Assembly (NCBI RefSeq): GCF_058153355.1
Contig: NZ_CM177019.1
Strand: one strand, 5' to 3'
Length of the DNA: 64,000 bases
Part shown: positions 28,201 to 31,200 of the stretch, in pieces
Layout: each line of letters opens with the position of its first letter
Position numbering within the stretch: position 1 is the stretch's first letter
Made by a program: the position numbers

Positions 28201-31200
28201 GCAGCGGTAAAACAAGGACTGCCCGGCTGTGGGTCTACGTTCGTGATGACCGTAACGCCGGTTCGGAAATGCCTCCGGCGGTCTGGTTCGCGTACAGCCC
28301 GGACCGGAAAGGTATCCATCCACAGAATCATCTGGCCGGTTACAGCGGAGTGCTTCAGGCCGATGCTTACGGTGGTTACCGGGCGTTGTACGAATCCGGC
28401 AGAATAACGGAAGCCGCATGTATGGCTCATGCCCGGAGAAAAATCCACGATGTGCATGCAAGAGTGCCCACCGACATCACCACGGAAGCCCTGCAGCGTA
28501 TCGGTGAACTGTATGCCATCGAGGCAGAGGTCCGGGGCTGTTCAGCAGAACAGCGTCTGGCGGCAAGAAAAGCCAGAGCCGCGCCACTGATGCAGTCACT
28601 GTATGACTGGATACAGCAACAGATGAAAACACTGTCGCGTCACTCGGACACGGCAAAAGCGTTCGCATACCTGCTGAAACAGTGGGATGCACTGAACGTG
28701 TACTGCAGTAATGGCTGGGTGGAAATCGACAACAACATCGCAGAGAACGCCTTACGGGGAGTGGCCGTAGGCCGGAAAAACTGGCTCTTCGCGGGTTCTG
28801 ACAGCGGTGGTGAACATGCTGCGGTGTTGTACTCGCTGATCGGCACATGCCGTCTGAACAATGTGGAGCCAGAAAAGTGGCTGCGTTACGTCATTGAACA
28901 TATCCAGGACTGGCCGGCAAACCGGGTACGCGATCTGTTGCCCTGGAAAGTTGATCTGAGCTCTCAGTAAATATCAATACGGTTCTGGCGAGCCGCTTAC
29001 GGATGAAGGTGATGGGGCAGGGATCAGAATTGCGCGTTTTAGTGAGTTGTATCTATTAATTTTCAAATAAATACAATTGGTTATGTGTTATTGGGTGAAG
29101 GGGATCGAGAGGCAAAGAAAGCCCGGCGCTGAGGCCGGGGTGATGATTAAGAATTCACTCTATGGAGTATCTTTCTTGATATTGCGTTGATATCGGACAT
29201 ATCAGGAGCTATATCATTTGCTGCAAACATCAGCCTGTTGGAGTCTTTTTTGGGCAATTCAGACAAATTAGAACATATGGCAATTGAGTCAAATTGTTCA
29301 TTGTTTGCAGCAAGATGTTGCAATGTTATTGTCGTCAGTCTCGCCTTGTCCTTGTTCGCTATACCAAAAAGATACAGGGGGCGCGACGTGTTGGTTGTTA
29401 TCTTAAAGTCAATGGGATAATCTTGGCTATTCGGTACGTTTGCTAAGTAATTTTCAATAACATTATCTTCGCCAACAATATTAATAACAGCTTCTTTTAG
29501 ATCATCATAAAAACTTGACTCTGTTCTTGTTTTTGTCCACATGCCAATGTCATAAAGCCTTGTGATCCCCTGCCCAAATCTGAAAAGATTGCGCATTATT
29601 CCTGGAGTATCAGATAGAAGATAAATCTCACCATCATCATCTATCAACCCAGACTCTGTTAATAGTGAATGATATAGATTTCCTCTTGTGCCGTTGACAA
29701 TTCTATTTGTATCAAATTCGTAGCTCAATCTCATCATGGTTGTTCCCATGTCTGAGATTTTCCAACCTCCGGCATTTGGTTTTAGATATGCAACAATGAC
29801 ATCGCCATCTCTGGCAGTCATAGGCAGTGTAACGGCAACCATGCCATGACGCTGAGTTACGTACACCGAGCCACACAGGCTAGTGCAAATCTCTCTTTCT
29901 ATTGCGTCAAGGTCAATTGTCATTTATCCAGTCTCTGGTCGGGTCTATTTCCGGTAGTTTCAGACCATTAATATTACAATCAGATATTAAACACATTAAA
30001 GCGGTATCACAACAGTTATACCTGTCTGTTTCGATAGCAAAATGCTCTGGTTTCCTTCCTGCCTCAATATATCTTTCAGTGGCTTTGTGTATGTGGTACT
30101 TATAGCTTACATCCTGCCCCTCTATTGGGTTTTCATGTGGATGATCGCAACCATTATATCTGATAAGTGTTACAGGCTCCCTGCCTGGGATCTCAATCCT
30201 AAGTCCACACGAAAAATTATCCGGCAAGATTGTATTCTGTCGGATGTAAAGAGTGTATTTTCTTTTCCCATCCATTGACTGCACATCATAGTTTTTTCTT
30301 CTTGATTTTCTTTGTTCAGTCCACCTTGCTTTTGGATTTTTAACTACTTTTTCCTCAGTAATGAATTGCTCAATTTGAGCATCTGTAAAAGTCACTCCAT
30401 CCATTTTCTGCCTGTTAAAAGTCAAAAAAGTATTGCATAAACAGTTGCCTATAACCAGAGGCCACTTTGGTCACCCAAAGAAACAGCAGTCTGGGTCTAC
30501 TCTGACGACTTCAAGCGCATCAGTCAGCGAAAGCTCAGTACTGTACTGATGCCATTTCATATCCTTCCGCATCCAATAGATTTTCCATCTATCCAGAGAA
30601 CGTATGTACTTGATTCTTGCTGATGGCAGGATGTTTGTTTCACCAGGATTGCCCTGCCACACGGGGCGCTGTTCACCGATATCTATCGTTTGGTCATTGA
30701 TGCTATAAACAATATCCAGTTCATTGCGGATATGTTCAGGCGGCCTTATGCTTTCAATGAATTGGTGAACTTCTTTTTTGACCGCTTGATATTCAAGGTC
30801 AGTGAACGCCATCTATCCTCCTCACCCAAACGTCTCTTCAGGCCACTGGTTACCAGCTATGTGACGATGAAGTCACGAACTTTTCAGCCACTCCCTTGCC
30901 TCGATGTCATCCAGATGGCGAGATTGCTTCAGAATACCAGCTACATACTCCACCTTTGCTACTTGATGATAAGGCAACGTTATTGGCCTGTGGTCCTGGT
31001 TAATGCTTGTAAATTGGTATTCTCCATCTCTGTCATAGCCAAGAACCTTAATCATGTTGTGTCCTTCAACGGTTCTGACAAACACCTCATCACCCGGGAA
31101 TACTTTGGTGTTAGGCTCAATGAGTACATATTCTCCTGATTTTATTCTGGGCCACATGCTGTCTCCTTTCACACGAAGGCCAAAGGCATCTGGATCATCG

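Follow-up and report, generated by a model that had tools for sequence, protein, structure and literature searches.

Downstream of the cI repressor gene of a lambdoid prophage, on the 64,000-nucleotide stretch of contig NZ_CM177019.1 that we analysed (NCBI RefSeq assembly GCF_058153355.1; hereafter the window), lies a block of three genes whose products belong to the families DUF3024, DUF6978 and DUF1828. Sequence comparison resolves this block into two separable units, namely a DUF3024 leader gene and a mobile DUF6978/DUF1828 pair. On the grounds of position, mobility and fold, we lean towards a lysogen-expressed anti-phage role for the block, because of the expression precedent set by the stk gene of phage 933W, the equivalence of the slot it occupies, its recurrence behind repressors, its status as a candidate in PADLOC, and a prediction made with DefensePredictor. 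The families are already catalogued, and the block is an experimental lead rather than a new kind of system.

Three genes behind the repressor

Because full-length homologues were found for all three proteins (best E = 1e-164, 1e-83 and 1e-70), and because the proteins matched Pfam DUF3024 (E = 5.5e-31), DUF6978 (E = 7.2e-11) and DUF1828 (E = 5.2e-13, residues 34–122, a domain that 32 of 32 distant relatives also match), all three open reading frames (ORFs) are real genes. A preliminary description of this DNA had already placed them, co-oriented, on the strand of cI (Table 1; the second ORF then being read as 29913–30425, 170 aa from a TTG), and this was borne out, the strand being the minus strand. 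Its statement that none of the proteins could be assigned to a family did not survive the search with profile hidden Markov models that it had proposed, in which each of them matched a Pfam DUF family and a PADLOC candidate model. NCBIfam held no family for any of the three, and searches against the sequences of solved structures, with the single proteins as well as with family profiles, returned nothing below E = 0.07. All three proteins are soluble, with an acidic to near-neutral isoelectric point (5.0–6.2), and no membrane segment was present in any of them (maximum Kyte-Doolittle mean over 19 residues at most 1.05).

The DUF6978 gene most likely starts at ATG 30404 (163 aa) and not at TTG 30425 (170 aa), since its homologues and the annotation of E. 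coli STEC299 by the Prokaryotic Genome Annotation Pipeline (PGAP) begin there. Its product had been described as rich in cysteine and histidine; the enrichment turned out to be modest (6 Cys and 5 His in 163 aa), although four of the histidines are invariant across the family. Similarly, the AT-richness ascribed to the entire block was found for the DUF6978 and DUF1828 genes (G+C content 0.39) but not for DUF3024 (0.447, like the 0.456 of cI). The prophage has a G+C content of 0.49 ± 0.04, and only 0.3% of its equal-sized segments are as low as the pair.

The DUF6978/DUF1828 pair recurs across phyla

The spread of the pair was surveyed with one genome per species; 168 stretches encoded relatives of the DUF1828 protein, and the counts given here refer to the best 80 loci. 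An intact DUF6978 homologue was located immediately upstream and on the same strand in 76 of these 80 species loci, and was split by a frameshift in 3 more. The stop and start codons of the two genes overlapped in 54 of 75 loci, the overlap measuring 4 nt in 31 of these, and a gap of at most 10 nt separated them in a further 19. In the window this overlap measures 11 nt, GGATAAATGACAATTGACC, with the ATG of the DUF1828 gene at 29923 and the TGA of the DUF6978 gene ending at 29913, so that the translational coupling proposed earlier for the last two genes of the block agrees with an arrangement common to the family. The pair occurs in more than 10 phyla, including Proteobacteria, Bacteroidota, Chloroflexota, Acidobacteriota, Nitrospirota, Verrucomicrobiota and Actinomycetota, which fits horizontal spread, and across these phyla it retains 35–48% identity with clusters of invariant residues. 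The superfamily of the DUF1828 protein is large (1,567 cluster representatives at E <= 1e-3), and almost all of these representatives are 250–270 aa long.

A cI-like repressor gene immediately precedes the pair in E. coli STEC299, in P. aeruginosa and other Pseudomonas-type prophages, and in Xenorhabdus; the pair is divergent from cro in P. aeruginosa, in the other Pseudomonas-type prophages and in Xenorhabdus (there between cI and N). Of the 13 closest species loci, 9 carried the pair behind a cI-like repressor, and a tenth lay just outside the 2.5-kb limit. Co-occurrence next to cI in other prophages, which had been suggested as a check on the block, was thus observed for the pair in several genera, but for the three genes together, among the matches listed, only in STEC299.

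Elsewhere, in Hydrogenophaga (locus positions 5528–6777), the two genes of the pair stand by themselves, flanked by urease accessory genes on one side and a molybdopterin oxidoreductase operon on the other, and none of their neighbours is a phage or defence gene. A distant pair (L090) lies among PglZ, DUF499, DUF1156 and SNF2 genes, and the upstream gene of this pair matches the DUF6978 profile with E = 6.5e-21.

Two small, translationally coupled proteins that have spread horizontally across phyla might also constitute a toxin–antitoxin (TA)-like module for addiction or stabilisation, which would keep a prophage or island in place and have no specific anti-phage role. The ability of the pair to stand alone between metabolic operons, as next to the Hydrogenophaga urease genes, is compatible with such a module, and the related DUF1829-containing protein DS-6B has been interpreted as an antitoxin-like partner of a HipA kinase. 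However, searches of Pfam, NCBIfam and PADLOC matched neither protein of the pair to a known family of toxins or antitoxins, and no DNA-binding helix-turn-helix (HTH) domain was detectable in either of them, so that we regard a TA-like module as unlikely. It should be added that this explanation overlaps with an anti-phage role, because defence activity is common among TA modules.

A constant leader gene with exchangeable cargo

The resemblance of the window to 933W-type phages breaks off precisely at the DUF3024 stop codon, after which 933W continues with orf153, stk, a small ORF and then the terminator tM. The DUF3024 gene itself shares 94.2% nucleotide identity with 933W and 100% with STEC299. 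Moreover, the entire DUF3024-DUF6978-DUF1828 block is 99.9–100% identical between the window and STEC299 while residing behind unrelated repressors (cI genes of 52% nucleotide identity), and comparison of the window with both 933W and STEC299 put the breakpoint of the immunity-region mosaic at the cI stop codon. Neither a shared recombination site nor an RNA element was found at the cI/DUF3024 and DUF3024/cargo junctions, where similarity just ends at the stop codons.

Among the matches listed, the same cargo was encountered in 1 of 5,426 complete E. coli genomes, namely that of STEC299, from a marmot (as derived from the match ranking). No coliphage record contained the DUF6978/DUF1828 pair, and the only phages that have it are four Pseudomonas phages. 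This rarity in E. coli and the foreign base composition of the pair would both suit a passenger (a moron) that is carried along passively and either serves host fitness or some purpose other than defence, or at present has no function. Such a passenger is hard to reconcile, however, with the strong conservation across phyla of sequence, pairing and overlapping stop and start codons, and with reading frames that two prophages share intact and at 100% identity, and it seems to us highly improbable.

In Enterobacterales prophages, DUF3024 starts roughly 35–70 nt past the stop codon of the repressor gene, whichever repressor or cargo is present. In E. coli and Salmonella this repressor is a cI of the S24 type; Kluyvera and Yersinia have a short HTH protein in its place. 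At least 7 unrelated cargos follow DUF3024, and in every comparison similarity ended at the DUF3024 stop codon. These cargos are orf153 with Stk in 933W and an Erwinia remnant, a ParA-like ATPase in Salmonella, three small genes in Kluyvera, an ABC ATPase with a C5 methylase in Yersinia, a 173-aa protein in a common O157:H7 prophage, a pair of 162 and 206 aa in another E. coli, and the DUF6978/DUF1828 pair in the window. Three of the alternatives match validated defence families. For Stk of 933W these are PD-T4-6 (E = 1e-37) and mad6 (E = 7e-50); the match is to HEC-04 (E = 1.7e-36) for the Yersinia ATPase, which is AriA-, PtuA-, Old- and GajA-like, and to PD-T4-9_C (E = 2.6e-8) for the last Kluyvera cargo gene. 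The earlier proposal that the slot downstream of the repressor holds defence cargo in other lambdoid prophages is therefore supported.

DUF3024 was present in 389 of 5,426 complete E. coli genomes and matched the PADLOC model PDC-S43 over its full length (E = 1.5e-41; residues 1–113 against 1–115 of 115). It was also found, with no repressor, on plasmids of Rhodococcus, Mycobacterium, Vibrio and Bradyrhizobium. Outside Enterobacterales no constant partner was seen, the proteins encoded upstream of it on the Mycobacterium, Bradyrhizobium and Vibrio plasmids being mutually unrelated. In an alignment of 22 sequences the two extremities of the protein hardly vary or do not vary at all (N terminus M-A-F-x-D-x-E, C terminus C-F-[FW]-G), even at an overall identity of 35–45%, which suggests that both termini are functional contact sites. 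DUF3024 behaves as the constant leader gene of the slot and is a single-gene candidate (PDC-S43), not an obligatory partner of the pair.

In a separate observation, the DUF3024 copy of a prophage widespread in O157:H7 and other strains (E. coli O157:H7 MB41-1 and E. coli PA11; locus positions 3501–3838; 83.5% nucleotide identity) proved to be degraded. In this O157:H7-type prophage either a 66-aa fragment or nothing is annotated at its place, and the downstream 173-aa cargo gene is intact.

The preliminary description had taken the three genes for one operonic module. That view could be extended to a single obligatory three-component system with DUF3024 as sensor or regulator, given that the only two E. 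coli occurrences among the matches listed (window and STEC299) share the whole block behind their unrelated repressors. DUF3024, though, accompanied the pair in none of the 80 species loci and in none of the Pseudomonas and Xenorhabdus prophages that have the pair, and PADLOC models it as a single-gene candidate. Because the pair is intact without DUF3024 in 76 of 80 species loci, and because DUF3024 precedes unrelated cargos with similarity ending at its stop codon, a single three-gene module was not supported: the conserved unit consists of two genes, DUF6978 and the DUF1828 protein, and a three-component system is very unlikely.

The short distance at which DUF3024 always follows the repressor stop, whatever the repressor or cargo, raises the question of whether the genes, and DUF3024 especially, serve the lysogeny switch instead, by modulating repressor cleavage and induction or by tuning prophage development. 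A precedent exists in Hex of phage 434, a protein of the pRM transcript that blocks RecA-mediated autocleavage of the repressor, and the invariant MAFxDxE and CF[FW]G termini are what would be expected of a binding protein. On the other hand, DUF3024 resides on the plasmids mentioned above with neither a repressor nor a consistent neighbour, follows repressors with as well as without an S24 cleavage domain, and is a pseudogene in the common O157:H7 prophage, while the DUF6978/DUF1828 pair is found far from any prophage. We consequently judge a role in the switch to be quite unlikely.

Predicted expression with the repressor

The genes of the block are located directly 3′ of cI, as had been noted, and thus occupy the position that rexA and rexB hold in phage lambda, 3′ of cI on the pRM transcript and ahead of the immunity terminator. 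The lambda genes form a lysogen-expressed exclusion module of two proteins, of which RexB is a membrane protein. None of the three window proteins showed homology to RexAB (in PADLOC, Pfam, PHROG and NCBIfam) and, unlike with RexB, there is no membrane component.

The operon of the window runs from pRM over cI, DUF3024 and the DUF6978/DUF1828 pair to tM, the block being accessory cargo of the prophage repressor operon (Table 1). The oR/pRM region is approximately 96% identical to the annotated oR3, pM, pR, oR2 and oR1 of 933W, and the repressor matched PHROG 4 ("transcriptional repressor") with E = 6.8e-49. At the far end, the hairpin and U-run terminator of the preliminary description was recovered at 29139–29111 as CCCGGC-CUCAGC-GCCGGG followed by CUUUCUUU. 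This hairpin is homologous to the annotated tM of 933W, which terminates the pM transcript, and to the immunity-region terminators of HK542 and HK244. Between cI and tM, the terminator scan revealed no terminator-like site on the minus strand, and the promoter scan indicated no convincing internal promoter in the block, scores being as in shuffled sequence. Rfam families were not matched anywhere in 24800–32200.

In 933W, stk lies downstream of DUF3024 and is reported (citing Tyler 2004 and Friedman 2011) to be co-transcribed with cI and to abort HK97 infection. Because the window agrees with 933W in promoter, repressor and leader gene, and nothing resembling a terminator precedes tM on that strand, the genes cI, DUF3024 and the pair are by analogy most likely made continuously from pRM in the lysogen. 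The Stk module resembles the window block in immunity type, in its DUF3024 leader, in the slot between DUF3024 and tM and in having overlapping genes (orf153 and stk), but its cargo is wholly different, and none of the three window proteins has a kinase domain.

Table 1. Features of the cI repressor operon in the window, from operators to the spacer beyond the terminator
Feature	Position	Strand	Remarks
oR3-oR2-oR1 operators with pRM/pR promoters, operon start point	31573..31643	.	coordinates transferred from the 933W record
pRM (pM)	about 31588-31615	-	transferred from the 933W annotation
cI repressor (HTH + S24 peptidase), 235 aa, 933W immunity type	30873..31580	-	98.6% nucleotide identity to 933W cI
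Gene 1, DUF3024 protein, 113 aa	30471..30812	-	933W L0084 homologue; strong Shine-Dalgarno sequence (GAGGAGG)
Gene 2, DUF6978 protein, 163 aa from ATG 30404	29913..30404	-	invariant H95/H97/H111/H113 (170-aa numbering)
Gene 3, DUF1828 protein, 258 aa	29147..29923	-	predicted chaperone-like N-domain and restriction-endonuclease-fold C-domain; start overlaps gene 2 stop by 11 nt
tM (tImm-equivalent), intrinsic terminator closing the repressor operon	29111..29139	-	terminator scan and fold
Conserved spacer from tM to oL/pL	29003..29110	-	aligns with 933W and STEC299 up to CTTCATCC

Folds, invariant residues and a possible mechanism

Structure prediction and fold search, which had been recommended for each protein, were informative for the DUF1828 protein, whose model resembles chaperone-like and restriction-endonuclease folds, but provided no solved relative for DUF6978. 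Across 48 DUF6978 sequences the residues K26, R62, G74, R89, N91, G92, H95, H97, H111 and H113 are invariant. The predicted DUF6978 model has no relative among solved folds, and its fold relatives extend to methanogens.

The DUF1828 protein was modelled as two domains (pLDDT 87, pTM 0.53). Its C-domain is predicted to contain the alpha-beta-beta-beta-alpha-beta core of the PD-(D/E)xK superfamily. The (D/E)xK motif is absent from beta3 of this domain, which reads PLYLFG and includes neither an acidic residue nor a lysine. The sole universally conserved residue of the C-domain is D172, in beta2; the nearest (D/E)-K candidates, (D/E)192-K193, fall where the following helix begins, and the conservation of K193 does not extend to the wider family. 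For this domain, REC domains come close to restriction-endonuclease folds in score. A Toprim reading of the DGD motif in the N-domain was considered and rejected, the motif being situated in a beta-hairpin of the chaperone-like fold.

From these features a mechanism can be sketched in which the horizontally mobile, translationally coupled DUF6978/DUF1828 pair would be the functional core. The two soluble proteins may form a stoichiometric complex. The N-domain of the DUF1828 protein, which resembles type III secretion system (T3SS) chaperones and YbjN, would present its invariant acidic surface (DGD...D...MRLSY) as a probable sensor or partner-binding site, and might sense something in the infected cell. 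The restriction-endonuclease-fold C-domain is probably the part that binds or cleaves nucleic acid, and DUF6978, predicted to be a beta domain of new fold, would supply a probable metal or catalytic centre in its invariant four-His site (with Cys, Asn and Arg). Nucleic acid could then be acted on by the His centre, by the endonuclease-fold domain, or by both. The pair would most likely act against superinfecting phages, by exclusion or by abortive infection.

Relation to catalogued candidates and the weight of the evidence

Within PADLOC, the pair is related to the two-gene candidate PDC-M24. The DUF6978 protein matched PDC-M24A weakly and partially (E = 4.8e-7, 28 bits; residues 13–119 against 3–102 of 146 in the model), and the DUF1828 protein matched PDC-M24B over its DUF1828 half only (E = 6.7e-11, 40 bits; residues 24–146 against 23–145 of 255). 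The likeness also comprises the order A then B, the adjacency and shared orientation of the genes, the sizes of the proteins (about 146–160 and 255 aa) and the homology of the families. In addition, the wider DUF1828 family aligns over its full length with the clade of the window (hhalign E = 5e-62), and one distant member resides in a BREX/DISARM-like locus together with a DUF6978-like partner. Unlike PDC-M24, the clade of the window occurs mainly in prophage repressor operons and is not embedded in restriction-modification (RM) or BREX loci. These comparisons suggest that the pair is a divergent branch of PDC-M24.

The 145 PADLOC candidates (PDCs), including PDC-M24 and PDC-S43, were described as untested, having been defined by their embedding in BREX, DISARM or type I RM loci. 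The block had been called undescribed; this is correct insofar as no experimental work was found in the literature, but PDC-S43 (by a full-length match) and PDC-M24 (by a weak and partial one) were already listed as candidates.

For the C-domain of the DUF1828 protein, structural resemblance was found to type II restriction endonucleases of the CCGG family (PspGI, NgoMIV, Cfr10I and Bse634I) and to the nuclease domains of Can2 and Card1, at identities of 5–13%, although the CARF domain of Can2/Card1 is absent. DefensePredictor lists the E. coli protein WP_000968518.1 (DUF1828 and DUF1829) as a predicted defence gene, the DUF1829 link having been made with HHblits. That protein, for which there is a prediction only, has the same layout, with an N-terminal DUF1828 and a PDDEXK-clan domain at approximately residues 155–241 of about 250. 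The same work newly implicated DUF1829 (Pfam clan PDDEXK) in defence through DS-6B of HipAD; DS-6B (DUF3037 and DUF1829), however, has a HipA kinase as its partner and not DUF6978.

Several points weigh against an anti-phage role. In many phyla the pair is found outside any recognisable prophage, and E. coli seldom has the cassette (1 of 5,426 complete genomes). The PDC-M24 matches, being weak and partial, cover about half of each model, and other PDCs failed when tested. The geometry between the two domains of the DUF1828 model is uncertain (pTM 0.53), and Pfam DUF1829 was not detected by HMMER in the DUF1828 protein or in the 32 distant relatives. Finally, a literature search by DUF and PDC names retrieved no functional study of the three families; validation in the prophage defence screen of Brenes & Laub 2025 is possible.

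A more far-reaching proposal joins two claims: that the pair is a mechanistically new anti-phage system, with a four-His effector of unseen fold and a sensor made of a chaperone-like domain and a rewired endonuclease, and that DUF3024 marks an unrecognised defence hotspot of enterobacterial lambdoid prophages, perhaps being itself a guard or adaptor of the repressor operon. Taken jointly, these claims are tentative and, in our estimation, doubtful.

Prophage and host context

The prophage adjoins the nrdAB-yfaL-ubiG-gyrA region of an Escherichia chromosome. It contains an integrase, Ant-like genes, a single-stranded DNA-binding protein (SSB), a Sak4-like protein and N, then cro, cII and a replication initiator, followed by a primase-helicase, NinB, Q and the late genes. 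The start of cro is probably ATG 31659 (75 aa, as in 933W) rather than the mechanical ORF start at 31626. Four Ant-like anti-repressor paralogues, unusually many for one prophage, were counted: two at the integrase end (17654–18337 and 18656–19438) and two in the nin region (37532–38257 and 38326–39054).

A composite element of the IS66 family occupies approximately 25103–29002, 120 nt past tM, and is flanked by an 8-bp target duplication, CTTCATCC. This insertion cuts the spacer behind tM at 29002/29003, and phage sequence resumes at about 25102 after the duplication. The element thereby parts tM from the oL/pL-nutL-N region while disrupting neither, the N gene (24507–24851) and pL/nutL looking intact. 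Its tnpA/B/C genes lie at 26427–28970, and a second insertion sequence (IS) is nested near its left end (approximately 25191–26600), with another copy of this nested IS at about 14563 (97% identical segment). A second IS66 copy is present in the late region (approximately 56000–58500), as seen from identical 300-nt segments at 26639–26938 and 56136–56435.

The host chromosome (window positions 1–14500, with nrdB, nrdA, yfaL, ubiG and gyrA) is that of an Escherichia with no close complete RefSeq E. coli genome. The best identity was 99.2% for gyrA (95–99% for nearly all complete E. coli genomes) and 97.2% for yfaL (90–95% to most of them), and no complete E. coli genome covered the block region to 80% or more.

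Possible significance for prophage-borne immunity

The block suggests a rule for mining, in that Enterobacterales genes between DUF3024 and tM are likely defence cargo. The pair itself comes with named invariant residues and ranges from Pseudomonas prophages to Bacteroidota and archaeal relatives. Validation would make the pair a new entry in the catalogue of prokaryotic immune systems; failing that, the pair would be a useful negative for approaches that argue from guilt by position and guilt by embedding. Few sites are known whose genes all lysogenic cells express. Prophage repressor operons belong to these, and the cargo they carry therefore shapes which phages can infect pathogenic E. coli, including lysogens of Shiga toxin (Stx) phages.

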